A stretch of 64,000 nucleotides of DNA from an uncultured Candidatus Saccharibacteria bacterium (GTDB lineage Bacteria > Patescibacteriota > Doudnabacteria > UBA920). A program made the position numbers and the translations under genes. The notes under the pieces were generated by a model. That model was given only the letters and a program-made list of their open reading frames with translations. It was not told the DNA's origin and did no database searches. The stretch is taken from the NCBI GenBank assembly GCA_964561085.1, contig CAZLNP010000001.1, forward strand, positions 147,201 to 211,200, in the 5' to 3' direction. Positions 150 through 40,006 of this stretch are shown piece by piece. How positions within the stretch are numbered: position 1 is the first letter of the stretch; the number at the start of each line of letters is the position of its first letter.

Positions 150-698
150 CTAATTAGATCTACTAGAGCCGGTCTCCGAATCGCTATCGGGAACCAGTGA
201 ATCGTCCTGACTTAATGTTAACGGGGCAATTTCAATAACTTTGTTAGTATCTGGTCTAAATAATATGGCTCTCTGAGCCTCCTGGTAGATTAAGACTTTA
301 TCCCCAGCTTTGGAATTTGCGAAGAACTCTTGATCTGCTAGCTTGGTTGGATCAGTAACGGTTGCTACTGTCGGCTCTTCCCCTACTGGGAGCTCTACTA
401 ACTGACCAACTTGGTCTACAATCTTTTGGCTTTCTTCTTTTGCTTTAGCGTTTGGATCGTTCTGGATTTGTTTCAACTCATTCTTTGCTTCTCTTAAATC
501 CATGTAGAATTTAACCGTAAATACTAATAATAGTAATCCGAAAATAATTACTAGTGCAATTAGAAGTTTCTTTTTATTTTGCTTCAAGCCATCAAGCACT
601 GAAGAAGTCTTAGATGTCTTAGAAAAATTTTGCGGCAAATCGAATGTTGAGTTAACAACAGAAGTAGACTTTATTTTAGATTTTAGTTTCTGTGGCAT
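150..698 (-). CDS. Hypothetical membrane protein (182 aa). Basic N-terminus, one TM helix (LLIALVIIFGLLLLVFTV), C-terminal soluble domain. Last gene of the minus-strand surface island.
   Basis: Intact ORF from the track. Hydrophobic helix visible in the translation. Sits immediately downstream of the giant protein gene on the same strand. Confidence 0.5.
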   Translation of the reverse strand: MPQKLKSKIKSTSVVNSTFDLPQNFSKTSKTSSVLDGLKQNKKKLLIALVIIFGLLLLVFTVKFYMDLREAKNELKQIQNDPNAKAKEESQKIVDQVGQLVELPVGEEPTVATVTDPTKLADQEFFANSKAGDKVLIYQEAQRAILFRPDTNKVIEIAPLTLSQDDSLVPDSDSETGSSRSN

Positions 699-781
699 AG
701 TTTAGTTTTACTCTATATATTATATCAAATGAATCGCATAAAACAAAACTAGCTATGCAAATCACAGCTAGTTTTTATTCT

Positions 782-3700
782 TTATTCTAATCCGAGAGAA
801 TTATCGGAAGAGGGTTCTTCAGTGGAGCTTGGTTCTTCTGGTTCTGTTGATGGTTCATCTATATTATTACCGCCATCAGTAGGCTCTTCGTCCTGATCTG
901 ACGAACCAGTTGAATCTGTTGAATCGCTCGATTCATCTACTTGGGGTTCATCGTTAGGTTGAGAATCGGAACCATCCGAACTAGAGTCATCGTAGAAATA
1001 TTCATCAGTTTGATCCCCTGCCACTTCACCTGTATCTAGCTCTATCTGATCTCCTGCTGAGATTACCAATCTTGGATTCTTTACCGCCAAAGCTATCCAG
1101 CTAAATGTGAGATCTTGAGGAGCCGGTTGGTTTAAGATAATTCGGAAGCCATTCTGACTCTTTCTTGTAACTAAGTGCTGTACATTACTACCAAACAATA
1201 ACTCAATGTTAGAGTCATCAATAATGTTCATGGCGTCTATCACTTCTTGGTTTACCTCTTCAAGAAGCTGTTCATCTTGCTCTTGGGTAATTGCCACACT
1301 AACAATTGGTTGTTCTAAGTATGAGCGCTCAAATGTTACGTCTACGTATCTGTCGCCTTGTAAAATTTTGGCATAGCCAGCTGTGTCTGAATTAAAGAAC
1401 GGGCGACCAATGAATACAAGGTCAGAAAGCACATCTATACTTCTGCCAGAGCTTCCAATCGTCAGCACTTGTAAGCCATCTGCCACAATGTTCGGAGAAA
1501 TTACTTCGAACGTTGCACTTAGTCTATCTGTAAGAATTTGAGAAGATACACCGACATCCTTCTTTTGAGTCTTCATTTGCTTTAGGAAAGCAAGGATTCT
1601 ATCTTGTTTAGTTTCTCTGAGTTCTAAATCGCCGCTTTCAAGAAGAACAGAATCTTCGTCTGGCATTTCTTCTAGGCCCATTTCTGCAATAGCGGCGTCC
1701 ATTTCTTCCATCAGCTGTTCGATTGGTAAACCGTTAAAGCTGCCAAGTTCTACGAACATCATGACTTTGCCACACATTTCCAAATCAACACTTGGCTCTT
1801 CTACTACTTCGTCAGCATCTGCAGTAGTTTCTTCGGTTTCACTTGTGGATTCTTCTGTTGACTCATTTGAAAGATCTTCAGATTCATTATTAGTTTGAAT
1901 TGAACACACTTCTTGCTGTTCTGCAGACAGGCTAGAATCAAGAGCTCTTCCAATTGCTAGCCCAGAACTTGTCGCACGCATAGCATGGCCTTCAATAGAG
2001 GAAGCTGTTAAGTAATCCCCTGGTTGTACCGGACCATTTTCATCGCTAAACTTTACAGGAATACGTCCAGTCAATGCTATTGGATAACCATCTGCTAATC
2101 TTTCTCCCAAAATAATTGCCGGTCTACTCGCCACCACACCAAGCACTCTCTGATTATTTTCACCAGTGTAAAGTACTACGTCGTCACCGTCACCGTTTGG
2201 ATCGATGGAAACTACATCCCCCGCTTGTAGGTTATTAGTAGAGTAATAGTACTCAGCCAAATCGGCTCCACCAGTGAATCCAACTTCTGTACCCAAACTA
2301 CCAACCGCTGTAACACCATCCAAAACTAACTCGTTTCTAATGTTATATAGCTGGTTTGTTATATAATCTAATCCTTGTCCTAACTGAACGTTTTCTGCTT
2401 GGGACCACATATGCTCATCAGTAGCCATTAATAGAGAGCGCTTAGAAAGATCTATGGAACGAATATCATCTGAGTCAGAATCCGTATCTGTCCATTCAGT
2501 TCCATGATCATCAGTCTTTTTAGCGTCGCCGTGGAAAATATCTGCAATTACGTTTGGACCTGCTTGGTGGTTATAACAAGTTACGCCACCAGTACCAGTT
2601 GTACTGTCTGTACCAACACAAAGCAATCTTGCTTCTCCGAGTAAAGCTTTGTTCGTTAATCCAATTGCAACTACAGCATTAGAATCGCCATATAGAGCTT
2701 CTGGGTCGACCTCGAAGTCCGTAGTTGTGTCTGGAGTAACATCAAATGGAATTGCCACTGTCATTGTGTCCGTGGTATTAGAAATTACACGACGTGTTTG
2801 GCCGGCACCAGTACCGCTGGTCAAGTTAACAATTAAACCTGCAAATTCATTCGGGAACCAAGTTTCTCCCGTGTCTGTAATTGTTGTTGAGGTAGCAGCT
2901 GTAGCGTTGTCTACTGTAATTACACGCTTGTTTACCAAAGGACGAGCATCGTTAAATAGACGGCGTTGTTGAGCATTACTTACTGTGGCAAGTGTTGTAG
3001 TTTGCACCGCAAATGTAAAGTCATCGATAGAACCGTTCCAGAAGTTTGAGCCAGCTGCACAGTTCACAGAACCTGCACATGAAGCACCAAGGCTAACAAT
3101 TTGGCTTCCGTCAAAGGTCGTAGCTAAGGCTGTAGCAGTACTTAAGTTAATTGCTTGCCCATCTAGATACACGTCAACGTCACCCGCGTTTGTGCGAGAA
3201 ATTGTTATCATATGCCATTGGTTATCATTATACAATTGAGATGTTGTTGCGGTAATGTCATAGGTGGTGCCTAAAGTCCAGCTGGCATCATCATCTACTC
3301 CGACACGGATTGTTCCAGTAGTTGTCATAGTAGCATCTACACAACCTGTTGCTGCTGTACCCGCTGCGACATAACATTTACTAAAGAGTACTTCAGGTGC
3401 TCCAGGGAGACTAGTAGAATGTTTAAACCACATACTGACCGTCCACCCAACGGTAGATATATTGAATGCCGTATCTACGTCACAAGTACCGTCCGAGGTT
3501 GTATCAGAACATAAGTATCCAGCGCCACCTAAGTCAACAGCTTTACCACGAACACCACTCACCCCTTGTGTGTAGGTTCCTTTGTAAGTCATATCATTGT
3601 CTACAATAGTGTCGCTGTCTGCAGTTGTTGTTGTGTCATCCAAAGGAAGAGCAACGTCAATATACTGATGCTTCATCATACTTTGACGATTTGTATCGAA

Positions 3701-6700
3701 CCACTTTACCCAGCCTGTTGCTGTTGTAGTGTGGCCATGCAATTCAGTCAAACCTAGACTGTGTCCAACATAAATTAAATCTTCTGTTTCTAGGGCAGAT
3801 GATGCACGTTCAATTACATCAATCGCGTCTGGTGCACCTACTATCATGTTTGGTGTAGTTTTAGAAAGTGCTGGTGTTGTAGATTGATCCCATACCGCGC
3901 TGTAAGCTCCATTAATTTCATTAATTTTGTCTGCATCAAAGTTATCCCAACGTTCCAATTGGTCCAGAGTAGTATTTAGAGCGTACATTCTACCAGTCTT
4001 AGTCAAATGCACAGCAGTGTAATCATTATCCGTTGCATCGGAATATTGAATCAGCTGACTTGTAGCCATGTTAATAACAGTAAGGCCAGAATTTGTTGCC
4101 AATGCAATATAAGTACCTCCATACCCTGGAGTTAAGTTAGTAGCAGCACCAATAGTAGACGCAGTGATTGTAATGTTAGGGTTAACAACAAACACATCAT
4201 TAATTGTTTCCCAACCAGCAATGGTACCAGTTACTGCAATGTCTAAGTTGGTATTATTATCTACGTTATAATTCACAGCCCCGTTACGACTTCCAATTCC
4301 AACGTCTGCACCAGAACGATCTGTAGCATCGTAGTTCCACATACGATCGTTAATAAAGTCGAAAGCGTAAAGCCCGTCACCCGCTCCATTAGAACCGTCG
4401 GTTGTACCAACATAGATAACACCATTCATAGCGGTTACGCTGGAAGGATCATTGCTAGTATCTACACCCAAAGCGTACCCACTAGCGTTTTGGCTAAACT
4501 TCATCCACAATGTATTGTTAGAAGTATCAAAAATATACAAAGCATTAGCAGTTACAGCCAAGGTTGCTTTTCTTGGAAAAGAGGAAGCACCACAACGATC
4601 GTCAGTTGAAATGTTACAAATTGAACCGACTGCGTCTTTTGTTTCGTTATACCAAGATAGTCTTTCTGTTGTTGCCCAGTCTACCCAGCGACCACCATCA
4701 CTGTCAGCGGTAGTATCATACAAGAACACATCTTTTACACCAGCTAGTGCTGTTAAGTTTCTAGCACCAATAGTAGTGATGTCGCCGTATACATCTAAGT
4801 CCCCTCTATTAATAGCTTCACCAATTTGAAGCATGCTAGTAGGAGCTGCTGTTCCAATACCAACATAACCATTCATGAATGCAGCGGCATACTCTATGCC
4901 AGCACCCGAGCCAGCATCTATGTATGCACCATAACTTGTTACATTTGTAGTTGATGCACCAGTTATTTTTAAGCCAGCATAAGTACAAGCACCAGTAGCA
5001 CAAGCAGTCATAGTAGGAGCTTCAATATTTAAACCATTAATTTGTTTAGTTCCAGCGCCAGATGTGTTAACAGTAATTGCTAGATTCAAACCATTAGTGA
5101 TTGATTCACTTGAAGCGTTAGTAGAGGCGTTAGTATATGTCAAATTTACTAGACTGCCAGTTTGAGTTGCACCTGGGTCATAAGAAGCGCCAGTAACATT
5201 AATTGCGTTTCCTCGAGTCAATACAGTACCCATGTTAATCTCTATAACTTTTCCAGTAGTTAAAGAAGTGGCATTAAATGTTGCGAGCCTGCCAGTGGCA
5301 GTAGAGTTGGCTGTTAAGTTTAACAATCCACCTGATCCAGTGTAAGCACCAGAAGCTTGAAGTTGAACAATGCCGTTAGACACAGAACCAGTTGTTGCAG
5401 ATGTAACTTTAAAAGCAGACCCTGAAGTAAGCCCTGTTCCTGAAGAAGTGACAGTTAAGTTATCTGTTGTAGTTGTTGCACCCCAATCCAAAGTTTGAAC
5501 AGTTGTACCCATCGCAACAGCGCCATTACCTGCAGCATCGCCGATTGTATCGAAAGTAGTAGAGCCGCCACCAGCGATTGTACAATCTGTACGAGTTGAA
5601 CCAGCGTTGTCTACACAAGCAACTCCTGCACCTGTAAAGTTCAAGGTAGCGCGCTGTGTTAAGCTACCAGCTTCATCTTGAATAGTGGTGTATCCACCAC
5701 CAGCTGAACAAGCACCCCAAAGAATTGTAGTAGCATTTGCTTTCAAACATTCTGTATCTGAACCACGAGCCAAACGGGTTGAGTTAGTGCCATTATGGTA
5801 CAGTAAGTCACCATTAGTTGTGAGTTGAGATAGATTGTTAATTGCATTCTGCGATGTTGATGCTCCAGTACCACCATCTGCAACTGCAATATCAGTTCCG
5901 TTCCATATGCCTGTAGTAACAGTGCCATTGTTAGCTGTAACTACAAGACCGTTAAAGCTAGTTGCTCCAGTGATTGCACCAGACAGTGCAAGTGAACTCA
6001 ATGTTCCGACGCTCGTCAAAGAAGAAGCAGTCACATTAGCAGCTAAGGTTGACCCTGAAATATCTGCTGCTGCGTTAACAGTTATATTAGCATTTGGGAA
6101 TGTGTAAGTTTTATCTGATCCTGTTAAGTCTGCGGTTGTAAAAATACCAGCGAAAGTCGCACCAGTTCCAGTAGTTTGAGGTTTAATATTGATTGTGTCT
6201 GTATTAGCAGTTGTAGATGAGGCTACAATTGAACCTGTAGTCGTAGCAATAAGATTAACATTCTGAGCGGCTCCACCTGCGGTAAATGATAGAGCACCAG
6301 TTCCGGTGATTGAACCATTCGCTGTTCCAGTACCGCCAAGCGAAACTGGAAGCTGTGCATTCACTGACCATGTTCCAGAAGAAATACTTGGTACACCTGT
6401 TGATGCTGAAGTGTTAATTCCAGTACCACCGTAGGTACCAGCAATAGCAGTCCCATTCCAAACACCAGTTGTAATTGTTCCGATGGAAACTAAAGATGAC
6501 AAAGTTGTCACACCTGATGTAATTAAAGTTCCTGTGGTTGGAAGTGTCACGTTTGTAGCACCAGTAGTTGTAAGTGTAAGAGCGTTTGCTCCCGCTGTTG
6601 TAAATGCTGCCGCTGTATTAATGTTGCCGCCAAGGGTAATTGTGTTGCTACCATTGTTTACTCCTGTGCCACCATAAGTTGAGCCGACCACTGTTCCCTG

Positions 6701-7558
6701 CCAAGCTCCTGCAGTAACAACTCCGCTTGCGTTTACACTAAATGCATTTGCGGTTCCAGAAGTTAATGTTCCAGATACATCTACATTTCCTGTTATAGCT
6801 AAATCACTTCCAGAAGGTGCAATTGTTAAATCGCCTCCGGATGAGGTTGTGAAGGAAGAATAGTTTGCTGCGTCGTAGCCAACTCTTAATTGTTCAGTTG
6901 TAGATGTGACATGCAATTTTGCAGAAGTAGTGGCTGTTCCAATTCCTACATTACCACCAGTTAAGTTCCAACCAGCTCCGCTTCCTACAGAAGTCAAAGT
7001 TGTGAATCCGTTAGATGCTACTCCCAAAGTTGCGCGGTTAGAGCCATCATAATTAAATGCTGCTTGGGTGGCGGTATTAGTAATGTCCACCAGACCTGTG
7101 CCCTTAAGATTGCTTGCCAAGAAAGCGACTGGAACTGTTCCAATCTTCTTTCGTGGAGTCATTTCTCCATCCCAACTAGGTGTCCCTGTTCCTCCGATGT
7201 TTACACTCAAAAATAAAGTCTGATTAAAATCTAGACTACCAAAAGGGTTAACCTCTCCCAACATCACACTAAACACCCCATTAGTGACTGTCACTTTATC
7301 TCCAGCAGTACGAGTTTCGGTCCAAAGAAGACTTCCTCCACTTACAGCGTCGTAAAGTTTGAACTCCATGTTATAGTCACCATCCGCAACAGCGACATTG
7401 CTACCATTTGTTAGTTTTCCCTGGTAGTTAATCTCTGCATTATAAGCAGCAATGGCCGAACGTTCATAATTGAAAGTAGATGCTACTGTAGCCAATACAA
7501 CTAGAAGGCCTATTAACGCGAAAGCTATGCGCACGGTAGGAGTAAAGAGTTTAATCAT
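782..7558 (-). CDS. Giant surface protein (about 2,258 aa). N-terminal signal/anchor helix, long Thr/Gly/Ser/Asn-rich repeat region, central LamG/ConA-like lectin-fold domain, C-terminal acidic Asp/Glu/Ser/Pro-rich tail.
   Basis: Uninterrupted 6.8 kb ORF. The ORF track starts at 7591 (MRKCEQ...). The internal Met at 7558 (MIKLFTPTVRIAFALIGLLVVLATVAS) gives a typical signal/anchor and avoids overlap with the upstream HTH gene. LamG-like signature '...WTVSMWFKH...NQWHMITISRTNAGDVDVYLDGQ' is encoded around 3050-3450. Confidence 0.8.
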   Translation of the reverse strand: MIKLFTPTVRIAFALIGLLVVLATVASTFNYERSAIAAYNAEINYQGKLTNGSNVAVADGDYNMEFKLYDAVSGGSLLWTETRTAGDKVTVTNGVFSVMLGEVNPFGSLDFNQTLFLSVNIGGTGTPSWDGEMTPRKKIGTVPVAFLASNLKGTGLVDITNTATQAAFNYDGSNRATLGVASNGFTTLTSVGSGAGWNLTGGNVGIGTATTSAKLHVTSTTEQLRVGYDAANYSSFTTSSGGDLTIAPSGSDLAITGNVDVSGTLTSGTANAFSVNASGVVTAGAWQGTVVGSTYGGTGVNNGSNTITLGGNINTAAAFTTAGANALTLTTTGATNVTLPTTGTLITSGVTTLSSLVSIGTITTGVWNGTAIAGTYGGTGINTSASTGVPSISSGTWSVNAQLPVSLGGTGTANGSITGTGALSFTAGGAAQNVNLIATTTGSIVASSTTANTDTINIKPQTTGTGATFAGIFTTADLTGSDKTYTFPNANITVNAAADISGSTLAANVTASSLTSVGTLSSLALSGAITGATSFNGLVVTANNGTVTTGIWNGTDIAVADGGTGASTSQNAINNLSQLTTNGDLLYHNGTNSTRLARGSDTECLKANATTILWGACSAGGGYTTIQDEAGSLTQRATLNFTGAGVACVDNAGSTRTDCTIAGGGSTTFDTIGDAAGNGAVAMGTTVQTLDWGATTTTDNLTVTSSGTGLTSGSAFKVTSATTGSVSNGIVQLQASGAYTGSGGLLNLTANSTATGRLATFNATSLTTGKVIEINMGTVLTRGNAINVTGASYDPGATQTGSLVNLTYTNASTNASSESITNGLNLAITVNTSGAGTKQINGLNIEAPTMTACATGACTYAGLKITGASTTNVTSYGAYIDAGSGAGIEYAAAFMNGYVGIGTAAPTSMLQIGEAINRGDLDVYGDITTIGARNLTALAGVKDVFLYDTTADSDGGRWVDWATTERLSWYNETKDAVGSICNISTDDRCGASSFPRKATLAVTANALYIFDTSNNTLWMKFSQNASGYALGVDTSNDPSSVTAMNGVIYVGTTDGSNGAGDGLYAFDFINDRMWNYDATDRSGADVGIGSRNGAVNYNVDNNTNLDIAVTGTIAGWETINDVFVVNPNITITASTIGAATNLTPGYGGTYIALATNSGLTVINMATSQLIQYSDATDNDYTAVHLTKTGRMYALNTTLDQLERWDNFDADKINEINGAYSAVWDQSTTPALSKTTPNMIVGAPDAIDVIERASSALETEDLIYVGHSLGLTELHGHTTTATGWVKWFDTNRQSMMKHQYIDVALPLDDTTTTADSDTIVDNDMTYKGTYTQGVSGVRGKAVDLGGAGYLCSDTTSDGTCDVDTAFNISTVGWTVSMWFKHSTSLPGAPEVLFSKCYVAAGTAATGCVDATMTTTGTIRVGVDDDASWTLGTTYDITATTSQLYNDNQWHMITISRTNAGDVDVYLDGQAINLSTATALATTFDGSQIVSLGASCAGSVNCAAGSNFWNGSIDDFTFAVQTTTLATVSNAQQRRLFNDARPLVNKRVITVDNATAATSTTITDTGETWFPNEFAGLIVNLTSGTGAGQTRRVISNTTDTMTVAIPFDVTPDTTTDFEVDPEALYGDSNAVVAIGLTNKALLGEARLLCVGTDSTTGTGGVTCYNHQAGPNVIADIFHGDAKKTDDHGTEWTDTDSDSDDIRSIDLSKRSLLMATDEHMWSQAENVQLGQGLDYITNQLYNIRNELVLDGVTAVGSLGTEVGFTGGADLAEYYYSTNNLQAGDVVSIDPNGDGDDVVLYTGENNQRVLGVVASRPAIILGERLADGYPIALTGRIPVKFSDENGPVQPGDYLTASSIEGHAMRATSSGLAIGRALDSSLSAEQQEVCSIQTNNESEDLSNESTEESTSETEETTADADEVVEEPSVDLEMCGKVMMFVELGSFNGLPIEQLMEEMDAAIAEMGLEEMPDEDSVLLESGDLELRETKQDRILAFLKQMKTQKKDVGVSSQILTDRLSATFEVISPNIVADGLQVLTIGSSGRSIDVLSDLVFIGRPFFNSDTAGYAKILQGDRYVDVTFERSYLEQPIVSVAITQEQDEQLLEEVNQEVIDAMNIIDDSNIELLFGSNVQHLVTRKSQNGFRIILNQPAPQDLTFSWIALAVKNPRLVISAGDQIELDTGEVAGDQTDEYFYDDSSSDGSDSQPNDEPQVDESSDSTDSTGSSDQDEEPTDGGNNIDEPSTEPEEPSSTEEPSSDNSLGLE

Positions 7559-7802
7559 ACACAACCTCCGCTTTTGTTCGCATTTGCGCACTGCGAGAAT
7601 GCTTCACTTTTTGTTGTTTCAAATACAATAAAACCGCCCCACGTGTAGTGAGCCAGTTTCTAGCTATCTTCATTGCTTTTAGATGTCCTGTTCTCGCTCT
7701 TAAACTCAAGTACTCGGCTGAGTATGGAGTAAAGTTTGCAGCTTCAGAGATTGAGATTAAATCTCCTGAGGCTAAAAAGGACTTCTTTTCCCTTTCTGAC
7801 AT
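7551..7802 (-). CDS. Small helix-turn-helix DNA-binding protein (83 aa, excisionase/MerR-like HTH), immediately upstream of the giant protein gene.
   Basis: ORF with the segment 'ISISEAANFTPYSAEYLSLRARTGHLKAMKIARNWLTTRGAV', which resembles an excisionase-family HTH. Its stop codon lies 2-4 nt from the proposed giant-gene start. Confidence 0.5.
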   Translation of the reverse strand: MSEREKKSFLASGDLISISEAANFTPYSAEYLSLRARTGHLKAMKIARNWLTTRGAVLLYLKQQKVKHSRSAQMRTKAEVVYD

Positions 7803-7940
7803 ATTGTATTTTAGTTTTTGTTTCTTGTATTGATCTTCGCTTTTTTACCGATGATCAATATTTGCTATCCGATACTTTTTCTATATCAAGTATAGCAGTT
7901 TTATTGCGTTTTGTCAATGCTATATTAAAAAAGAGTTGGA

Positions 7941-9284
7941 TTATTCCAACTCTTTTTTCTCTTCATTGCTTCGCAAGGAAATTTGTTTTCTAATTCTTAC
8001 TACTCTCCAAAAATGTACTGTCACAATTACTGCGGCGAGGCCCACTGTTCCTATGATAACGGGGTTCGGAAGTCCTTCCTGTCCCGATTCTTCCCTGCTA
8101 TCCACTTCTGCCTGCGCTTCATTAATTACTTCAACAGAGCCCGAAACCTTTTCAAGTATTAATTTTGTCGAATTAAATACTGTGACAACTAATGCATAGT
8201 TTTTTGGATTTTTAAACGCTGGGGTTTTTACCCTATACTCACCGCTCTCTTTATCGTAAAAAAACAGATAGGTCGAGCTAGAAGATTTTTTTTCAGGATC
8301 GGCAACAGTCAACGTTAAGAATGACCCATCTTCAGGTAGACGACTCCTCGGGATTGAAATTTCTAAACCTTGTCCTACAGGAATCACTGGGTTGTCTAAA
8401 TCCAAAGTAAGACCATCGCGATAGGAAAAATTAAAATCTTTAAACAGACTTGGAATCAGTGGTGGGTTCTTTACCGAAGGAAGTTGTATGTCTACTGCAG
8501 GAGCTGTTGGATCTGTGTTGACTTCATCACTGCTGGCGATCATTGTATACGAAACGGATCCGGAAGAATAATTACCAGTAGTGTCCTTAGAGAACGCTGT
8601 ATAAAAATAAATTACACCGGGCACTACATTGTCATCATAAAAATTACTTCCAAGACCTTCATAGATCACAGCTCCATTTAAAGGATCTAAAGGAAAAAAC
8701 TTTTCTGATTTTACTATTCTAACTAAATTAAAATCTGATTCTGTTGGATTGTTCCAACTTAAATGAATATGTTTTAATTGAGGAGTTGCAGAAAACTCAC
8801 TAACATTGCTGGGTGGTTCTGTGTCTGGTGGGCTAAGTGTTACGAATACATCTTGATACTTACTCTCGGCACCATTTGTCCCGGTAGAAATTATTTGAAA
8901 GTAGTATCTTTTATTTGGTAATAGATCTGAAATTAGAGCTGAATGATTCTTGGTATATTGTTCTCCAGCAACAGTGCCATCTCTATAGTCAGGGTTAGTG
9001 CCCCAAGAAACGCGGGACAACGCTAAGTCTTGTGTGACCCAATTTATTGTCGCCGAATCGTAAGAAGTTGTTACTGCAACTCTACTTATTTTTGGAGGAC
9101 TAACCGTTGGAGGCGCCCCTCCTCCTGTAGATCCTGGCACAGGATCAACTCCGGTATTACTAGGCTGACCAACCTGAACACCACTACTTGCTGCATAGAT
9201 TAAAGCAGGCGTACTTAAAAATATTGAGCAAGTAAAAATCCCCAACGAAAATAAAGTAAAGATTCGGCTGATTTTGAATTTCAT
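7941..9284 (-). CDS. Membrane-anchored surface protein with two fibronectin type III-like domains (447 aa). N-terminal signal peptide, C-terminal TM helix and charged tail.
   Basis: Signal 'MKFKISRIFTLFSLGIFTCSIFLSTPALIYA'. FN3-like blocks ('ATINWVTQ...YYFQIISTGTNGAES', 'HIHLSWNNPTE...YFYTAFSKDTTGN'). C-terminal 'IIGTVGLAAVIVTVHFWRVVRIRKQ'. Confidence 0.65.
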   Translation of the reverse strand: MKFKISRIFTLFSLGIFTCSIFLSTPALIYAASSGVQVGQPSNTGVDPVPGSTGGGAPPTVSPPKISRVAVTTSYDSATINWVTQDLALSRVSWGTNPDYRDGTVAGEQYTKNHSALISDLLPNKRYYFQIISTGTNGAESKYQDVFVTLSPPDTEPPSNVSEFSATPQLKHIHLSWNNPTESDFNLVRIVKSEKFFPLDPLNGAVIYEGLGSNFYDDNVVPGVIYFYTAFSKDTTGNYSSGSVSYTMIASSDEVNTDPTAPAVDIQLPSVKNPPLIPSLFKDFNFSYRDGLTLDLDNPVIPVGQGLEISIPRSRLPEDGSFLTLTVADPEKKSSSSTYLFFYDKESGEYRVKTPAFKNPKNYALVVTVFNSTKLILEKVSGSVEVINEAQAEVDSREESGQEGLPNPVIIGTVGLAAVIVTVHFWRVVRIRKQISLRSNEEKKELE

Positions 9285-9293
9285 AACTAAGTT

Positions 9294-10097
9294 TTATAGA
9301 GCTACTGCAGTGACGGTAATATTAGCTTCGTAATTTCCATTAGGTTGGATATGACTTGAACCTACTTCAGCCTGCATCTTCACAGTAGTAGTAGTCCCCG
9401 ACGGATGATTCCCAGTTGTTCGTTCAGCAATTTGTTGGTCAGAAGTAGTAAGCTTGTCCCAACATCGATCTGTAGTATCACTTCCCCCTATAGCATCACA
9501 CGTAGCACCATTATCTTTGTATCTTTGAATAATATCTACTCCTTCTGGAGTAAATCCGTACTCGCTATCTGCTGAGGCTACTGACCATAAATAGTCCGGC
9601 GCAGCTCCACTTGTTGTATAGTCAGCAAAATCACTGGAAGCGCTTCGCAATGCTGGATTAGTATCGGCTTTAATTGTTAGCGAATATCCTGCTGGATTAT
9701 CTGTAATGACTGTCCAAACAGTTGAACCGCTACCGACTCCACCAGAAACTCCAGAGATTGCTGGACTCATTGTTACATCGCTTCCACTACTAATAGCTAA
9801 GTATGTGAGTTGTGCGCCTATGAATCCTGCGTTTATTCCATAGCTGCCACTCGCAGAGTCTCCAGTAGCTATCTCGCCAACTGTATCGAACAAACCATAA
9901 GAGGTAGATGATCCATCTTGCCCCCCAACGTTAATTGAATCTAACGGAATCTTATATGCTGTGCCAGCCATTTGTGCATGGATATGGGTCGCAGTTCCCA
10001 CTGACACAGACATCAACAAAAAAAACAGCACAGCAAACCTGAAAGTTTTGCCTGCACTGATTTTTGTTATTAAAATTTTAATTTTTTCTAAATTCAT
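9294..10097 (-). CDS. Secreted protein (267 aa), WxL-like. Paralog of the 11186-11836 gene.
   Basis: Signal peptide. Motif 'GSTVWTVITDNPAGYSLTIKADTNPALRS' is shared with its paralog and resembles the proximal WxL motif ([LI]TWT[LV]xDxP). Conserved C-terminus '...YEANITVTAVAL'. Confidence 0.55.
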   Translation of the reverse strand: MNLEKIKILITKISAGKTFRFAVLFFLLMSVSVGTATHIHAQMAGTAYKIPLDSINVGGQDGSSTSYGLFDTVGEIATGDSASGSYGINAGFIGAQLTYLAISSGSDVTMSPAISGVSGGVGSGSTVWTVITDNPAGYSLTIKADTNPALRSASSDFADYTTSGAAPDYLWSVASADSEYGFTPEGVDIIQRYKDNGATCDAIGGSDTTDRCWDKLTTSDQQIAERTTGNHPSGTTTTVKMQAEVGSSHIQPNGNYEANITVTAVAL

Positions 10098-10139
10098 CCT
10101 AATCGCTTACTAATGATACTGGCCAGCGGTTAGTGATTG

Positions 10140-11111
10140 CTATTTTTTACGTTTGATTTCAAATGAGCGCACTAACCGACGAAGGATAAAGGCTACCACA
10201 ATAATTGCTGCCAAGAAACCTACTACTATTTTCCAAGGTAGCACCCAAAAAGAAATAGTCTTTACATCAACTTCGTCTGGTGACTCCCTGTAGCCGCGGT
10301 CGATTGTTGCTGTTGCAGTATAACGACCAAAGGCGAAGTCTGATTCCCAAGTAACTACAGCTGCGCGTAGAGAGTCGGGCAAACTAAAGAAAGGGGCTAC
10401 TTCAATATCTTTAACACTACGTCCGAGCATGTTCTTAATTTGAACTTTACCGCTTGGAGTTAAGTGGACACTACTGTTATTTTCGTAAAGTAATTCGAAA
10501 TTAAAGGGTCCTTTTTCATGGAAAGCTTTATCATTTTCCATACGGAAATCTGTAAGCAATGAAGACTCTTTTACCTTGCCTTCAACACGAACAAAATACA
10601 AAGCACCGATTCTAGAAATAGTTTTTGCTTTGTTATCTAGTTCAGCATCGTCATCTGAAGATGGTGCGCTAGAAACCAAAACTGAACCATAGTGACCGCC
10701 TGGCTCTGCTTCTGCTGGAATAGTCACTACTACATCCAAAACGGCACGCTGTTTTGGTTTAAGTTTAAACGAATCCTTCTCTGGCTTGATGTAATCCTTT
10801 AAAGAATATGGGCCTTTGTCATTTCCTAAAAGAACTACAGGATTCTTTAAATCTTTCGAGCCCGTGAAGTCTTCTACGCTAACCGTAAAAGTTTGTTCTC
10901 GGTCGGTTCTGTTAACAACAGATAAACTTCGAGTTGCTTTCTCCCCTCTCTTTAAAAAGAGTTCTGTCTTAGCAGGGCCAACTACGAAGTCGTCACGAAT
11001 TTCCGCGGAAGTGTCTGTAATAGTAATCGCATAAGCAGTTGGAGCTAATCCAAAAGTTAATATTGAAATACTTATTAATACAAACCAACGGTTGAGGTTG
11101 AATTTTTTCAT
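10140..11111 (-). CDS. Signal-peptide protein with C-terminal TM anchor and KRKK tail (about 323 aa). Architecture resembles the DUF916/DUF3324-type anchored partner of WxL (Csc) loci.
   Basis: The ORF track starts at 11132. The internal Met 'MKKFNLNRWFVLISISILTFGLAPTAYA' at 11111 gives a clean signal peptide. C-terminus 'VVGFLAAIIVVAFILRRLVRSFEIKRKK'. Flanked by the two WxL-like paralogs. Confidence 0.55.
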   Translation of the reverse strand: MKKFNLNRWFVLISISILTFGLAPTAYAITITDTSAEIRDDFVVGPAKTELFLKRGEKATRSLSVVNRTDREQTFTVSVEDFTGSKDLKNPVVLLGNDKGPYSLKDYIKPEKDSFKLKPKQRAVLDVVVTIPAEAEPGGHYGSVLVSSAPSSDDDAELDNKAKTISRIGALYFVRVEGKVKESSLLTDFRMENDKAFHEKGPFNFELLYENNSSVHLTPSGKVQIKNMLGRSVKDIEVAPFFSLPDSLRAAVVTWESDFAFGRYTATATIDRGYRESPDEVDVKTISFWVLPWKIVVGFLAAIIVVAFILRRLVRSFEIKRKK

Positions 11112-11185
11112 CTTAGTATCAGAATACCACACTTTATGAGTGTGGTATAGTGGAAAATTATATTTAGTCTGCTTTGTATCTCAAC

Positions 11186-11836
11186 TTATAAAGTAGTAGC
11201 TGTAGCAGTGATTGTTGCTGAGTAAGAACCAGCTACTGCGAAAGTTGTATCTTGTTCAGTTGCTACACACATGTTAGCTACTGTACCAGATGTAGTTGTT
11301 GGAGCTGCTGCTGTAGCGATTTGGTCAGCTGAGCCAGTCAAATCGAAGTCTCTCCATTTTAGACCAGCGCTTGGTACGTCTGCACCAGCGATACAATCAG
11401 CATCTGTGCCATATGTAGAAGTGTTAACATCTGTGCCGAATGCTGAGAAACCAAATTCTACATTAGACGCAGGAACTGACCATGTTTCAGGTGTTTCAGA
11501 TACTGTAGGAGTGTAGTCAACGATGTTACCACCGCCACCAGAACGGGACAGTGCAGGGGCACTTGAAGCATGAAGAGTCAAAGTATACCCGTCATCGTTG
11601 TTTGTGATTACAGTCCAAGCTGCGGTGCCTACTGCTGTATTTTGAGAAGTAGACAATGCAGTCATTGTAATGTCTGAAGGTGAGCTTAGAGAAATCTCTG
11701 AAGTTACCGATTGGTTTACTACTACGTCGTCTGTATCTGTAGCAGCACCTGTGATCCTTGGTTCTACAAACGCAAATAGTCCTGAAACCATAACAGCGCT
11801 AGCAACCAACAAAATAAAGTTATTCTTTAAGTTCAT
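11186..11836 (-). CDS. Secreted protein (216 aa), WxL-like. Paralog of the 9294-10097 gene.
   Basis: Signal peptide 'MNLKNNFILLVASAVMVSGLFAFVEP'. Motif 'GTAAWTVITNNDDGYTLTLHASSAPALSRS'. C-terminus '...YSATITATATTL'. Clear paralogy with the 267-aa protein. Confidence 0.55.
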   Translation of the reverse strand: MNLKNNFILLVASAVMVSGLFAFVEPRITGAATDTDDVVVNQSVTSEISLSSPSDITMTALSTSQNTAVGTAAWTVITNNDDGYTLTLHASSAPALSRSGGGGNIVDYTPTVSETPETWSVPASNVEFGFSAFGTDVNTSTYGTDADCIAGADVPSAGLKWRDFDLTGSADQIATAAAPTTTSGTVANMCVATEQDTTFAVAGSYSATITATATTL

Positions 11837-12028
11837 TGTCTTTTATTAATTATTTTAGTTTATTTTTGTATCAACTGCCCTATTTAAGTAAAGTTGGGCA
11901 ACGTTTTCTTAACTTGTAATGATATTATAGCATGGTTTTACTGTTTTGTAAAGCGCAAACATCTTAATTTAATTTCTTCTTCATATTATATGAAGAGATA
12001 TGCTATTATTTATATAGTAAAGTACTAC

Positions 12029-13363: not shown

Positions 13364-14515
13364 TTATGCTGCTGATTTTTTAAATAAGTCTGCCTCGTTT
13401 AATTGCTTTATATTCTGAGATAATACAACTACCTTATTATACTCCATATAGGCCACTACAACCCCTAGAAATAGCATCCCCCCAAGAATTTGCATAATGA
13501 GCGTTCTATTTGAAAATGGGGAAGAAGTAGATGAGCCTGCAGCTACAGGTTCTTCGCTAGATACAATCTCGAAAGTATCTGTAGAGGTAGCGATTAAATC
13601 CTCAGAGGGAACTGCGACTGTTAATGTATATTCACCCAATGGTAGAGTTGTGGTGGTAAGGAATGATTTAGAGTACTCTAGAGCACCTTTAACTGCCATG
13701 GTTTCCGAATTTTCAGAAACAATATCTTCATCTTTGTTTGTAATAGTGTATTGTACTTCTACGTCGACAGCTTTATCGGGACTACTAAAGTTAATAAATT
13801 TAATATCTGCAACGATAGGATCACCAACTAATACTTCTTTGGACTCACTATTAATTACAGCTCTTACATCGAACAACGCTCCCCCGTTTCCAAGTTGTGG
13901 CGTGTTATTAAATTTAGGAGCTAATGGCTCTTCATTCTCTCCTAACACAATTTCAAACAAGAATGAGTCAGTGGCCAATACCTTACTCGACACACCTCTT
14001 GAAACTTTAGCAGTTAAGGTATAAGTTCCTGGTTTTAGCGGAACAGTTGATTCCCAGGTCCAGTTACCATTAGTGTCCGCTAATGATTTTCCCGTTACAT
14101 TGTTTACCCCAAAAAGGTTCAATGCTACATTCCCATCAGGAACATTAGTATGTCCTATAAATTTAGGAAATTGATTTCTAAAAACAAAGATTGCCTGGAC
14201 CTCTCCATCTTGTAAGATATATCTTTGCTGGATAGAGTCACCTGGGATTACTGTAATCTCTGGAGTTAAATCAGGAATAGAGGTTTCTTCATTTGAGGCC
14301 GTGCTTGCCCTGCTACTATTCGAGATCACTTTAACGTCTGGTTCGACTGGGTGGTCTGCCAACAAAATGGGACGATTAGAGTTTTCGGCACTCACTGAGG
14401 TCAAAGCAATTCCAAGTACCCAAGCAAAAAATGCCACTAAAATTACACTAGTGACAAAAGTGACTGCATGATAGCTCCGCCTAATATGGTGATGTGCTAA
14501 ACCTGTTTGTTTCAT
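13364..14515 (-). CDS. Hypothetical surface protein anchored at both ends (383 aa). N-terminal TM, beta-rich Ig-like middle, C-terminal TM.
   Basis: 'VTFVTSVILVAFFAWVLGIALTSVSA' near the N-terminus and 'IMQILGGMLFLGVVVAYMEY' near the C-terminus. Confidence 0.5.
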   Translation of the reverse strand: MKQTGLAHHHIRRSYHAVTFVTSVILVAFFAWVLGIALTSVSAENSNRPILLADHPVEPDVKVISNSSRASTASNEETSIPDLTPEITVIPGDSIQQRYILQDGEVQAIFVFRNQFPKFIGHTNVPDGNVALNLFGVNNVTGKSLADTNGNWTWESTVPLKPGTYTLTAKVSRGVSSKVLATDSFLFEIVLGENEEPLAPKFNNTPQLGNGGALFDVRAVINSESKEVLVGDPIVADIKFINFSSPDKAVDVEVQYTITNKDEDIVSENSETMAVKGALEYSKSFLTTTTLPLGEYTLTVAVPSEDLIATSTDTFEIVSSEEPVAAGSSTSSPFSNRTLIMQILGGMLFLGVVVAYMEYNKVVVLSQNIKQLNEADLFKKSAA

Positions 14516-38362: not shown

Positions 38363-40006
38363 CTACCCCACCACCCTAAACACTTCTTCTACATCTGTAA
38401 TCTTATTCAAGGCCTTAATCAAACCATCTTGGGCCATGCTAATTGTGCCGTTAGCGTGAGCAAGTTTTTTGATATCAATAACGGAAGACTCTTTCAAGAT
38501 CAGCTCTCGCATCTCATCATTTACTTCTACTACCTCGTAAACGCCCATGCGTCCTTTATATCCCATTCCCCCACATTCGGAACACCCATCAGAATGATAG
38601 AACACTAACTTCCCGTCTGCACTTCTTGGAATTTCTACTCCTGCGCTTTCAGGGATATCGGCAATTAACTTTTCAACTTTTTCTTGTAGTTTAGTTGGTA
38701 GCTCTGCTGGCTTCATACAAGATTGGCAAATTCGACGAACGAGTCGTTGCGCTAAGATTGCATTCAATGCTGGAGCAATAGTGAACGCCTTCACGCCCAT
38801 TGTTATTAATCGAGGAACGGCGCCGGCAGCATCATTTGTGTGGAGTGTAGACAAAACTATGTGTCCAGTAAGTGCAGCTTGCAATGCAGTCTCTGCAGTT
38901 TCCGGATCACGAATTTCTCCAACCATTACGATGTCAGGATCTTGACGAAGAACTGCTCTCAAACCTTTTGCAAAATTAAAATCAACGCGGTGATCAATTG
39001 GTGTTTGCTGAATGCCTTCAACTTTATATTCAACTGGATCTTCTAAGGTAATAATTTTCACACCAGGTTCATTTAGTTCACGTAAAAACGCGTACAAGGT
39101 TGTTGTCTTACCAGAACCTGTTGGACCAGTAGTTAGAATCATGCCGTTAGGTTTATCAAGTTGTTCTTTCACAACTTCACCAGCGCGTCCTTGAATTCCC
39201 AAATCTGCAACTCTTACATCTACTGCACCAATACCTAACAAACGCATTACGATAGCTTCACCGTAACTTGATGGCAAAATAGAAACACGTACATCTAATG
39301 GTTCATTATTGTACATCACAGTGAAGCGGCCATCTTGAGAAACATTATTAACATTTAGTTTTAACTTAGCTAACAACTTGATGCGTGAGATTACACTGTT
39401 GTGAGAAGTCTTTGGCATTTGAGCTGCATCATGCAAAACACCATCTATACGAAGCCTCACTTTTACCATATGTTCTTCTGGTTCTAAGTGGATGTCGGAA
39501 GATCCTTGTCTTACCGCAGCACCAAACATAGCGGTTAGTAGATCGCTAGCGTTTGTAGTTTCGTTCTGCATAAGCGCCTGCAGCTCATCTTGAGAGCCAG
39601 CATCGCCAAACTTAATAGAGTCCTGAAAAGTCGTAAGAGGTCTTACAACCTTACTATAGAACTTCATTGTTGCTTCGTAACTGGATGCAGAAATATAGTA
39701 CAACTCTACTTTGTGATCTTTCGATAGATCAGCGACTTTAGCTTTTAATGCTGGATTTTCTGGCTCATTTGTCCCTAGACGTAGATCGCGATGGTCTTTG
39801 TAAAAAGGAACAGCTTTAATATCGCGAGCTTCCTGTTCGGTAATAATAGATAGCGCCGTAAGATCTAATGGAAAATTTTGTAAATTTATATACTGCATAC
39901 CTAAAGAATTAGCGCGTCCTTGGGACTCGCGTTCTTCTATGTTGCGCTTCTCATCTTCTAGTGCGCGTGTTAGATCTTTAGGATTGCTTGATAAAAAATT
40001 ACTCAT
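38363..40006 (-). CDS. pilB: Type IV pilus assembly / type II secretion ATPase (GspE/PilB family, 547 aa).
   Basis: Walker A 'GPTGSGKTTT', Asp/His boxes, tetracysteine motif 'CQSC...CSEC', N-terminal GspE_N-like domain. Confidence 0.85.
   Translation of the reverse strand: MSNFLSSNPKDLTRALEDEKRNIEERESQGRANSLGMQYINLQNFPLDLTALSIITEQEARDIKAVPFYKDHRDLRLGTNEPENPALKAKVADLSKDHKVELYYISASSYEATMKFYSKVVRPLTTFQDSIKFGDAGSQDELQALMQNETTNASDLLTAMFGAAVRQGSSDIHLEPEEHMVKVRLRIDGVLHDAAQMPKTSHNSVISRIKLLAKLKLNVNNVSQDGRFTVMYNNEPLDVRVSILPSSYGEAIVMRLLGIGAVDVRVADLGIQGRAGEVVKEQLDKPNGMILTTGPTGSGKTTTLYAFLRELNEPGVKIITLEDPVEYKVEGIQQTPIDHRVDFNFAKGLRAVLRQDPDIVMVGEIRDPETAETALQAALTGHIVLSTLHTNDAAGAVPRLITMGVKAFTIAPALNAILAQRLVRRICQSCMKPAELPTKLQEKVEKLIADIPESAGVEIPRSADGKLVFYHSDGCSECGGMGYKGRMGVYEVVEVNDEMRELILKESSVIDIKKLAHANGTISMAQDGLIKALNKITDVEEVFRVVG

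Follow-up and report, generated by a model that had tools for sequence, protein, structure and literature searches.

A cluster of surface-protein genes in a 64-kb window of DNA (the whole stretch analysed) from an ultrasmall CPR/Patescibacteria bacterium is widely conserved and best read as a pared-down relative of the Pam pilus operon, a variant of a kind described only in 2026. We consider it probable that the cluster encodes a minimal Pam-type surface fibre, assembled without an usher by means of a chaperone and donor-strand exchange, and in addition a regulator/giant-adhesin pair transcribed on its own. The first-pass annotation had proposed a host- or substrate-attachment apparatus never described as a unit. 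An attachment role is plausible in view of the conserved, co-located exported or envelope proteins and the small DNA-binding protein, but the claim of novelty does not stand: the pam operon of Ca. Mycosynbacter amalyticus (CPR, Saccharimonadia) contains the same component types (Troman et al., bioRxiv 10.64898/2026.03.03.709456), and NCBIfam holds a PamT model.

The cluster lies at the window edge, so that its flank is visible on one side. All seven co-directional minus-strand genes of the initial description were present and intact (Table 1), and the gene calls were identical in an independent assembly (L001). Full-length homologues were found for each ORF, and thus no pseudogene or mis-called ORF is apparent. 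As first noted, no enzyme or transporter gene is interleaved, and Shine-Dalgarno motifs are at background (4/42 genes versus 7% expected). Signal-like hydrophobic N-terminal segments were detected in ORF1, ORF2, ORF3, ORF4, and ORF6, and transmembrane (TM) segments at the C termini of ORF2 (residues 292-326) and ORF4 (residues 404-429) and once in ORF7. The proposed paralogy of ORF1 and ORF3 was recovered by BLASTP (E 2e-15) and HHalign (99.9%, E 3e-37). ORF4 is an FN3 protein as suggested, with FN3-type Pfam domains (Pur_ac_phosph_N and fn3) and a C-terminal TM helix. The compositional bias of ORF6 was likewise borne out (Thr 13.9%, Gly 10.9%, Ser 8.7%), whereas its LamG assignment holds for orthologues (PF13385/PF00054) but is weak for the protein itself (E 0.012).

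Table 1. Genes and predicted transcription signals of the cluster (window coordinates)
Feature	Position	Strand	Description
ORF1	11186..11836	-	216 aa: signal peptide, short N-terminal strand (TDDVVVNQSVTS), single pilin-like beta domain
ORF2	10140..11132	-	330 aa (323 from first ATG): signal peptide, two Ig-like beta-sandwich domains, C-terminal TM helix
ORF3	9294..10097	-	267 aa: signal peptide, ~55-aa extension, pilin-like domain with two invariant Cys
ORF4	7941..9284	-	447 aa: signal peptide, N-terminal strand (SSGVQVGQ), Gly/Pro linker, two FN3 domains, third beta domain, C-terminal TM helix, short basic tail
ORF5	7551..7802	-	83 aa: small HTH_17 (MerR/excisionase-type) DNA-binding protein; 3' end overlaps ORF6 start
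ORF6	782..7558	-	2269 aa (2258 from ATG): signal peptide, N-terminal domain, Thr/Gly-rich fibre region, LamG-like region, acidic C terminus; tail-fibre-like giant surface protein
ORF7	150..698	-	182 aa: Lys-rich cytoplasmic N terminus, one TM (41-69), external domain
Candidate promoter upstream of ORF1	11924..11952	-	TTTACA-17-TGcTATAAT; sigma-70-like, 11/12 consensus match, extended -10
Likely intrinsic terminator of ORF1-4	7927..7958	-	14-bp hairpin overlapping ORF4 end, then T-run; dG -17.3 kcal/mol
Candidate promoter of ORF5-ORF6	7889-7917	-	TTGACA-17-TGcTATACT; 11/12 sigma-70-like match
Candidate operator or 5'-UTR element of ORF5-ORF6	7864-7875	-	Near-palindromic GTATCGGATAGC, downstream of promoter (joint region 7864..7917)
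ORF6-ORF7 gap	745..775	-	Hairpin and T-run, then extended -10 (TGATATAAT) upstream of ORF7

The order (ORF1)-ORF2-ORF3-ORF4-(HTH)-giant protein recurred in 47 species-representative Patescibacteria genomes, a recurrence of gene arrangement far beyond chance. The possibility that these genes occur together only in this genome is thereby dismissed. The conserved cluster comprises six of the seven genes, all but ORF7. Its core is the ORF2-ORF3 pair (44/45 evaluable loci), followed downstream by ORF4 at 33 of 38 loci and preceded by ORF1, in places in two copies, at 27 of 41. An ORF6-type giant comes after ORF4 at 23/29 evaluable loci, distant lineages included, and a member of the HTH family is present at 20/27, either as a small protein between ORF4 and ORF6 or as one of 300 to 600 aa upstream of ORF1/ORF2.

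Judged by its sequence, ORF2 is a clear homologue of WxLIP (DUF916/DUF3324) from gut Firmicutes, to which it aligned over both domains (HHalign 97.3%, E 2.4e-11). The solved EfmWxLIP1 was its best structural match, and the fold is also near those of the chaperones CfaA, FimC, CsuC, and PapD. ORF2, which has more than 1100 homologues, is thus a candidate membrane-anchored chaperone of the PamC/PamD type; none of the Pam-specific NCBIfam models matched it. The three-protein triad recognized at the outset therefore has a genuine WxLIP homologue as its middle gene, but its two flanking members, ORF1 and ORF3, failed every sequence test for WxL proteins. The label "WxL-like" had to be dropped for both: they have neither a PF13731 domain nor a dual W-x-L motif, the corresponding positions reading G-Y-[ST]-L and I-T-[AV]-T-A instead, and they show no profile-profile similarity to WxL domains. 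A search of 21 ORF1 relatives returned no Pfam WxL (PF13731) match at E<=10, and HHalign of the subunit family against 10 WxL domains gave probabilities below 5%.

The domain common to ORF1 and ORF3 was modelled as a chaperone-usher-type pilin fold, and its best structural matches were polymerizing donor-strand pilins. ORF3, whose family comprises ~2000 clusters at 50% identity, matched the NCBIfam profile CPR_pilus_PamT at 29.9 bits, short of the curated equivalog cutoff of 240. All 30 ORF3 relatives tested matched the same model (NF058579; best E 1.7e-14), and two of the 30 also matched CPR_Pam_pilin_C. These profile matches place ORF3 remotely within the PamT family; it is the universal subunit of the cluster. 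Its conserved extension of ~55 aa (YKIPLDSINVGG...SYxLxDTxGE...SYxLxAGY) had a pLDDT of <50 when modelled alone, as expected if this segment needs a partner in order to fold. Both ORF1 and ORF3 are single-domain proteins. In similar clusters elsewhere, the ORF3 module forms the C terminus of LamG, DUF2341, FN3, or beta-helix adhesins, fusions that by analogy resemble two-domain tip adhesins; two-domain ORF3 relatives are known in other genomes, with none in this window. ORF1, for which neither Pfam nor NCBIfam (Pam models included) returned a match, is proposed to be a shaft or minor subunit. Genome by genome, the mature N-terminal strands of ORF1 and ORF4 are alike, with mean scores of 16.1 within and 10.5 across genomes (permutation p ~1e-4, by a statistic that ignores phylogeny).

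Taken together with ORF4, these proteins reproduce much of the Pam inventory. The pam operon encodes PamT, the membrane-anchored FimC/PapD-like chaperones PamC/D, and PamR, in which two FnIII domains lie between an N-terminal strand and a C-terminal TM, and a tail-fibre-like gene is central to pam neighbourhoods (bioRxiv 10.64898/2026.03.03.709456). The present cluster likewise encodes predicted Sec-exported subunits, whose modelled domain, similar to chaperone-usher pilins, may be a truncated Ig-like fold that in ORF1 and ORF3 would accept a donor strand; a protein recognized by the PamT model; a FimC/PapD-like candidate chaperone whose C-terminal TM helix is kept; and a protein with the N-terminal strand, tandem FnIII domains, and C-terminal TM of PamR. 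By this architecture ORF4 is a candidate PamR-like anchor or terminator, the match being one of architecture only, as no Pam-specific HMM matched it. Neither system has an usher or a dedicated trans-envelope machine, and a syntenic tail-fibre-like giant adjoins here as well. ORF6 belongs to the giants of this kind that the Pam preprint noted beside pam operons. The two systems also differ. Besides the remoteness of the ORF3 similarity, the window has single-domain subunits in place of two-domain major pilins (NTD, linker strand, and CTD; PamA/PamB/PamE), one chaperone instead of two, and an HTH gene built into the cluster. The ATP-synthase, CorB, and MFS neighbourhood of pam is absent from the 64-kb window, at whose edge the cluster lies. 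The named relatives of our cluster are of the Parcubacteria/Paceibacteria type, whereas Saccharimonadia and Microgenomatia are highlighted in the preprint. Finally, Pam proteins were observed as filaments by cryo-EM (bioRxiv 10.64898/2026.03.03.709456), while the cluster studied here is known from its genes and predicted folds.

The fibre model that we favour builds on these homologies, folds, architectures, synteny, and strand co-variation. Sec would export all structural proteins. ORF2, tethered by its C-terminal helix, would act as the chaperone, its two Ig-like domains capping the incomplete pilin-like domains of ORF3 and ORF1, and strand exchange would then join the subunits into a polymer. 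ORF3, the universal PamT-like subunit, would most likely be distal, because its relatives in other genomes carry N-terminal adhesin domains. ORF1 (0-2 copies per genome) would lengthen the fibre by inserting the strand at its mature N terminus into the subunit before it, until the look-alike strand of ORF4 ends the fibre; the double-FN3 stalk and TM helix of ORF4 would hold the fibre at the cell. PamT is without a linker strand (bioRxiv 10.64898/2026.03.03.709456), and the order of subunits could therefore differ from the one proposed. Likewise, ORF1 is missing from about one-third of the loci, and the systems concerned may thus be short stalks rather than pili.

The last point would also suit a non-filamentous surface complex of the WxL/Csc type, in which ORF1 and ORF3 are stand-alone wall- or membrane-associated beta proteins, stabilized 1:1 by ORF2 and serving as non-polymerizing binding surfaces. 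WxL/Csc clusters of Lactobacillales encode a small WxL protein, WxLIP (DUF916, DUF3324, and TM), a large WxL protein, a small LPXTG protein, and often an HTH gene. The binding of WxL proteins to peptidoglycan is considered non-covalent, and these proteins are not known to form fibres. In ORF2, our cluster has a genuine WxLIP homologue with both DUF916/DUF3324 domains and the TM helix, and it has the same order of small subunit, WxLIP, and second subunit. WxL clusters most commonly have the WxLIP gene between two genes for paralogous small secreted proteins, and an HTH gene close by. Sizes nearly coincide as well (232/340/237 aa in pEfm12493 versus 216/323/267 aa here), and in relatives (L052) a giant adhesin that bears the module C-terminally serves as second subunit, like a large WxL protein. 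In both systems, the mature N terminus of the anchor mimics that of the small subunit (TTEGxIxFxP versus ETEGSIxFxG). However, neither WxL motifs nor detectable similarity to WxL domains occur in ORF1 and ORF3, an FN3 protein of 447 aa anchored by a TM helix stands in place of the sortase-anchored LPXTG protein of ~115 aa (no LPXTG protein is encoded in the cluster), and the HTH proteins are unrelated. Moreover, the ORF3 family is recognized by the model of a protein from a system seen as filaments by cryo-EM (bioRxiv 10.64898/2026.03.03.709456), the best structural matches polymerize, and a simple 1:1 complex would leave the co-varying N-terminal strands of ORF1 and ORF4 without a function. 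We consequently regard the non-filamentous alternative as rather unlikely.

In fold, the subunits are closest to CsuA/B, CupE, FimA/G/H, and CfaB, and the proposed scheme, in which donor strands are N-terminal and one subunit serves as terminator or anchor, is that of the classical and archaic chaperone-usher pili of Gram-negative bacteria (Fim, Pap, CFA/I, Csu, and CupE). In contrast with those pili, the chaperone is membrane-tethered rather than soluble, the fibre would be anchored by an integral membrane protein, and there is no detectable sequence similarity. No usher-like gene occurs in or beside the cluster, and CPR bacteria have no outer membrane (established; also bioRxiv 10.64898/2026.03.03.709456). 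The ORF3 domain also had high-ranking structural matches in other donor-strand fibres of monoderms and archaea, namely TasA fibres, the archaeal cannulae CanX, and TasA-like bundling pili. These share Sec-exported beta-sandwich subunits and strand complementation without an usher, but their operons are without a dedicated two-domain chaperone gene or an FN3/TM anchor gene, and there is no sequence relationship.

Attachment to host cells is considered the way of life of CPR/Patescibacteria. The cluster points to a very wide distribution of a simplified Pam-like fibre beyond the lineages stressed so far. Its minimal version of four genes (subunit, chaperone, subunit, and anchor) should be easy to reconstitute, and the strand co-variation supplies testable donor-strand candidates. 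The link to WxL clusters appears to be unpublished. The homology of the chaperone to WxLIP, the mirrored gene order, and the mirrored N-terminal strands together suggest a way in which the products of the WxL/Csc adhesion clusters of enterococci, listeriae, and lactobacilli, long an enigma, might be assembled. Only tentatively, the Pam-type clusters of CPR and the WxL/Csc clusters of Lactobacillales might be two branches of one ancient, usher-less monoderm pathway of chaperone and donor-strand exchange. Its parts would be a tethered two-Ig chaperone (WxLIP, PamC/D, and ORF2), strand-complemented beta-sandwich subunits (small and large WxL proteins, ORF1 and ORF3, and Pam pilins), and an anchor that supplies the final donor strand with its mature N terminus (the LPXTG protein, ORF4, and PamR). 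If so, WxL "complexes" would be assembled by strand exchange, and in clusters of the present sort the fibre would carry the giant tail-fibre-like protein, perhaps by way of the invariant ORF3 extension.

The genes are not as tightly packed as the initially reported spacers of 4 to 50 nt implied. Successive values are 53 nt (74 from the ATG), 42 nt, 9 nt, 138 nt, an 8-nt overlap (41 nt from the GTG start), and 83 nt. Signals in the longer gaps suggest three transcription units, ORF1-4, ORF5-6, and ORF7, the last apparently with a promoter of its own (Table 1). The hairpin at the end of ORF4 is also present in the closest relative, L004, and the ORF5-ORF6 promoter and the GTATCGGATAGC motif are kept at the same position in L004-L008, L010, and L013. 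The motif is doubled in L008 and L013 and occurs once only within the window. The earlier suggestion of one operon is probably incorrect. That the seven genes are co-directional, encode envelope proteins, and are in six cases syntenic in many genomes would agree with a single operon for one previously undescribed attachment apparatus, but predicted pairs of terminator and promoter separate the three units, ORF7 is conserved in close relatives only, and the component set has been published as the pam operon (2026) and modelled in NCBIfam. Such an arrangement is hence highly improbable.

In the favoured model, ORF5 would probably autoregulate the ORF5-ORF6 unit via the conserved GTATCGGATAGC site. 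Its Pfam HTH_17 match is weak (E 0.016) and stronger in relatives (3e-5 to 2e-3). ORF6 would be the giant adhesin, probably docking to the cell surface or the fibre by its N-terminal domain of ~130-150 aa (AxNxQINYQGKLTN...LWTE...), which is invariant in all relatives while the body varies. The 483 ORF6 homologues of 1300-3800 aa carry Laminin_G_3, Peptidase_S74, Beta_helix, LVIVD, or Collagen domains; ORF6 itself matched neither PDB sequences nor PHROG. It is conceivable, although we lean against it, that ORF5-ORF6(-ORF7) is an independent giant-adhesin module that shares only the neighbourhood, ORF6 never touching the fibre. The unit has its own predicted promoter, operator-like site, and terminator, related genomes encode ORF6-type giants at other places too (e.g., a second copy in L006, and P0401 and P0434 on one contig), and HHalign found no relation of the N-terminal domain to pilin or chaperone families. 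Against such independence, a giant with the invariant N-terminal domain recurs after ORF4 across distant lineages, the HTH gene shifts position inside the cluster yet remains part of it, and the centrality of a tail-fibre-like gene was found independently in the Pam preprint (bioRxiv 10.64898/2026.03.03.709456). ORF7, originally counted as a member of the island, is only loosely attached to it. Only three close relatives, L004, L006, and L009, have an ORF7 homologue after ORF6. In them it tracks the C-terminal portion of giants of the ORF6 type; in L006 it comes after a second giant, which is similar to the C-terminal region of ORF6.

The first-pass annotation of the surface-protein island was, as an observation, largely real: seven minus-strand ORFs (ORF1 to ORF7 in transcription order) fill the region, with identical calls in an independent assembly (L001). 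Hydrophobic signal-like segments were found at the N termini of ORF1, ORF2, ORF3, ORF4, and ORF6, C-terminal transmembrane (TM) segments in ORF2 and ORF4, and one TM segment in ORF7. Shine-Dalgarno motifs are no commoner than background, occurring in 4 of 42 genes. The genes had also been described as separated by tiny spacers. These measured 53 nt for ORF1-ORF2 (74 nt from the ATG), 42 nt for ORF2-ORF3, 9 nt for ORF3-ORF4, 138 nt for ORF4-ORF5, and 83 nt for ORF6-ORF7, with an 8-nt overlap (41 nt from the GTG start) between ORF5 and ORF6, and are therefore not all tiny. An 11/12 promoter match lies upstream of ORF1. A 14-bp hairpin with a T-run spans the end of ORF4 and is followed by TTGACA-17-TGcTATACT, whereas a second hairpin after ORF6 precedes an extended -10 element ahead of ORF7. 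Judging from these consensus matches, the predicted transcription units are likely ORF1 to ORF4, ORF5-ORF6, and ORF7. The island has the composition of the rest of the window and adjoins rpoC and rpoB; dnaA, dnaN, recF, and gyrA lie on the same chromosome. A further gene (MKQKIMKKQTILKNTARLLAAVILL...) with a signal-peptide-like N terminus runs off the left edge, and the run of exported-protein genes may therefore extend past the window.

Features of the island and its surroundings (window positions)
Feature	Position	Strand	Length	Description
Island	150-11836	minus		ORF1 to ORF7
ORF1	11836-11186	minus	216 aa	candidate pilin-like subunit
ORF2	11132/11111-10140	minus	330/323 aa	candidate chaperone
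ORF3	10097-9294	minus	267 aa	candidate pilin-like subunit
ORF4	9284-7941	minus	447 aa	candidate anchor
ORF4-ORF5 intergenic region	7803-7940			conserved among relatives
GTATCGGATAGC	7864-7875			near-palindromic motif
ORF5	7802-7551	minus	83 aa	HTH_17-type
ORF6	7591/7558-782	minus	2269/2258 aa	giant protein
ORF7	698-150	minus	182 aa	one TM segment
Edge gene	1-76	minus		starts at ~76
Ig-domain gene	13364-14515	minus	383 aa	surface-type protein
PKD gene	22484-24214	minus	576 aa	surface-type protein
Candidate ATPase gene	38363-40006	minus	547 aa	possibly PilB/GspE type
tRNA-Ile	60752-60828	minus		anticodon UAU

Each island family is present in a single copy in the window. The ORF3 family is large. 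Searches with ORF3 retrieved 257 matches in a 90%-clustered database and 1970 cluster representatives at 50% identity (E<=1e-3); ORF2 and ORF6 had 1169 and 483 matches, respectively. A survey of one genome per species, with genes mapped by BLAST and HMM, returned 47 loci. All but one, labelled Burkholderiales, have titles that are either patescibacterial or unspecific ("bacterium"); Paceibacterota, Nomura-, Zambryski-, and Vogelbacteria are named, along with many "uncultured Candidatus Saccharibacteria". The closest MAGs carry the latter label, and the named relatives are Nomura-, Zambryski-, Vogel-, and Magasanikbacteria or Paceibacterota. Among evaluable loci, ORF2 is directly upstream of ORF3 in 44 of 45 and ORF4 directly downstream in 33 of 38; an ORF6-type giant follows ORF4 in 23 of 29, an ORF5-family HTH protein is encoded in 20 of 27, and an ORF1-like paralogue lies upstream of ORF2 in 27 of 41 (in two copies in L007, L008, and L013). 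The HTH protein is either small and encoded between ORF4 and ORF6, as in the window, or 300 to 600 aa long and encoded upstream of ORF1/ORF2. ORF7 was found behind ORF6 in close relatives alone, namely L004, L006, and L009. Since the order recurs across loci, six of the seven genes are therefore not an association found here only and scattered elsewhere. Small 23S_rRNA_IVP genes (Pfam; four-helix bundle) are inserted between ORF3 and ORF4 in L002 (10826-11194) and L003 (2723-3091), and another follows a LamG-ORF3 fusion in L053 (6415-6813).

ORF1 and ORF3 are paralogous across a C-terminal domain of ~170 aa, to which ORF3 adds a highly conserved extension of ~55 aa directly after the signal peptide (ORF3 family alignment A1). 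The NCBIfam model CPR_pilus_PamT, named after a component of the Pam pilus operon of Ca. Mycosynbacter amalyticus, matched ORF3 (E 3.5e-7) and 30 of 30 relatives tested (best 1.7e-14), with scores far below the equivalog cutoff, so the relationship is a remote, family-level homology. CPR_Pam_pilin_C matched 2 of the 30. An AF2 model of ORF3 was confident for the domain (pLDDT ~90) and not for the extension (<50). Foldseek with this model returned nothing at E<=1e-3, and its list of matches, all above that value, was dominated by donor-strand pilins. ORF1 matched nothing in Pfam or NCBIfam, and ORF1, ORF3, and their profiles found no match among PDB sequences, a set without the PamA/PamB structures. 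WxL identity of ORF1 and ORF3 was rejected on sequence, as both failed every WxL test.

The AF2 model of ORF2 (pLDDT 87) consists of two beta-sandwich domains and a C-terminal helix. Its top structural match was EfmWxLIP1, a solved WxLIP (DUF916/DUF3324) protein, followed by the two-domain pilus chaperones CfaA, FimC, SafB, CsuC, YadV, EcpB, PapD, and CupB2. Sequence evidence agrees with these matches: ORF2 falls just under the threshold of Pfam WxLIP_PGBD, which 20 of 35 relatives match; EfmWxLIP1 was the sole significant hit of the family profile among PDB sequences (E 2.5e-5); and HHalign against seven Firmicute WxLIPs yielded 97.3% (E 2.4e-11) over 218 columns across both domains. ORF4 starts with a signal peptide and a short strand; a Gly/Pro linker leads to two FN3-type domains and a third beta domain that is conserved, and the protein ends in a TM helix with a basic tail. 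Pam-specific NCBIfam models did not match the ORF2 and ORF4 families.

Short strand-like motifs at the mature N termini of ORF1 and ORF4 vary in concert from genome to genome: DDVVVNQSV and SGVQVGQ in the window, QIVVTQTV and SVIITQSV in L011, SAVSLTVDE and SSVSLTVND in L016, TSVTLTVDE and STVSLEVET in L031, and NVVVTLTV and GIEVELNI in L022. The best ungapped ORF1-ORF4 strand score averaged 16.1 within and 10.5 between genomes (permutation p ~1e-4, kinship ignored). From this covariation we infer that both strands would serve one acceptor site, as expected of a shaft subunit and its terminator or anchor; this role agrees with that proposed for the N-terminal strand of PamR (bioRxiv 10.64898/2026.03.03.709456).

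In other genomes, the whole ORF3 module (extension plus domain) forms the C terminus of larger proteins: fusions of 365 to 670 aa with DUF2341 and LamG, a 1205-aa LamG/FN3 protein, and a 2187-aa repeat protein. The last is encoded in L052 in the order HTH, ORF1-like, ORF2-like, fusion, whereas L053 reads HTH, LamG-ORF3 fusion, ORF1-like, ORF2-like, ORF4-like, ORF6-type giant. These fusions share their architecture with two-domain tip adhesins and "large WxL" proteins, and put the ORF3 extension in the position of the donated linker of PamA and PamB. ORF3 is therefore favored as the distal subunit. ORF1 would then be an optional shaft and ORF4 the base, in an order that could differ. Public calls merging ORF2-like and ORF3-like sequences (e.g., the 450- to 550-aa P0248 and P0100), with a TM helix directly followed by the next signal peptide, probably reflect missed stops or starts; they inflate the count of "two-domain" relatives in the 50%-identity ORF3 family search.

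The ORF4-ORF5 intergenic region contains, in order, a promoter (TTGACA-N17-TGCTATA(A/C)T), the near-palindromic GTATCGGATAGC, and, as last element, an A-rich leader (GAAACAAAAAC...). GTATCGGATAGC is found once in the window and at the same position in L004 to L008, L010, and L013, tandemly doubled in L008 and L013. Downstream of it, most relatives have a hairpin with a CCAAAAT(T)AG loop, where the window has a different stem. The operator-like motif was also sought at the ORF1 promoter and was absent. GTATCGGATAGC could serve as an operator for ORF5 or as a 5′-UTR RNA element. The HTH_17 match of ORF5 is weak here and clearer in relatives; kinship with HTH proteins encoded in Firmicute WxL clusters or with the MarR-type RwpL was looked for and not found.

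ORF6 begins, at the mature N terminus, with an invariant domain (AxNxQINYQGKLTN...); the body behind it is variable. The homologues of ORF6, 1300 to 3800 aa in length, are giant proteins with Laminin_G_3, Peptidase_S74 ("chaperone of endosialidase"), Beta_helix, LVIVD, or Collagen domains, whereas ORF6 itself has a weak LamG match alone in Pfam. ORF6 and its profile had no match among PDB sequences, and no relation of the N-terminal domain to pilin or chaperone families was found. ORF6 fits the "tail fibre-like protein" central to pam neighbourhoods (bioRxiv 10.64898/2026.03.03.709456). Its origin as a prophage or tail-fibre remnant was rejected, given the absence of phage genes and of PHROG matches, the uniform composition, the chromosomal site beside rpoB/rpoC, and the conservation of ORF6 together with the cluster. 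In L006 (1-4756), a second giant matches ORF6 in the C-terminal part only (residues 1763-2200, 29% identity), and an ORF7 homologue comes next; the partner of ORF7 may thus be this C-terminal region and not the fibre genes.

The cluster had been proposed as an undescribed attachment apparatus, a claim overtaken by the 2026 Pam preprint, which reports cryo-EM filaments of PamA and PamB and a system with chaperones PamC and PamD bearing TM helices, tip PamT, anchor PamR, and no usher (bioRxiv 10.64898/2026.03.03.709456). The window cluster shares with Pam a PamT-family subunit, the chaperone type, a PamR-like architecture, and a giant neighbour. In contrast, it is devoid of two-domain major pilins, a second chaperone, and, within the 64-kb window, an ATP-synthase neighbourhood, and the sequence similarity is remote. 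It represents the Pam type in a new, minimal form that is very widespread. With classical chaperone-usher pili it has predicted folds and logic in common, but not the usher, a soluble chaperone, or sequence similarity. The cluster seems reasonably likely to specify a surface fibre or stalk that is assembled with a chaperone by strand exchange and anchored by ORF4; the giant adhesin conserved along with it would be expressed from its own promoter under HTH control.

WxL/Csc clusters are defined by one WxLIP and at least two WxL proteins, and seven on plasmids mostly read (HTH), LPXTG anchor, small WxL, WxLIP, small or large WxL. The term "WxL-like" fails for the subunits ORF1 and ORF3, to which it had been applied, but suits the cluster in spirit: ORF2 is homologous to WxLIP, and there is agreement in gene order and in the sizes of the proteins. 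Moreover, on Enterococcus plasmids (L054, L057, L058, and L060) the small LPXTG protein has a mature N terminus (e.g., ETEGSIRFTG) that resembles the one of the small WxL protein (e.g., TTEGKIEFRP), just as those of ORF1 and ORF4 resemble each other. The likeness between the plasmid proteins, of which no description was found in the literature searched, suggests strand donation by the LPXTG protein to a WxL domain. In published work, AF2 inserts a WxLIP strand into WxL, and the WxL N-terminal strand covers a buried WxL platform and may rearrange. "WxL" and "donor strand" co-occurred only in a 2013 review in the literature searched, and the Pam preprint mentions neither WxL nor DUF916 (bioRxiv 10.64898/2026.03.03.709456). 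That Pam-type and WxL clusters represent one ancient monoderm assembly pathway is a tentative and rather doubtful extension.

Several genes outside the island deserve mention. The Ig-domain gene (Big_13/Y_Y_Y-like, C-terminal TM) and an NMT1 gene are conserved beside the cluster in L004 and L006. Beyond rpoB, in a stretch where one would expect ribosomal protein genes, lies the gene for a PKD/Filamin/DUF5648 protein. The putative PilB/GspE-type ATPase is a guess from its N-terminal sequence; if correct, the genome would encode type IV pilus machinery as well. Finally, the sole tRNA in the window has the anticodon UAU; in bacteria, AUA is more commonly read by lysidine-modified CAU.
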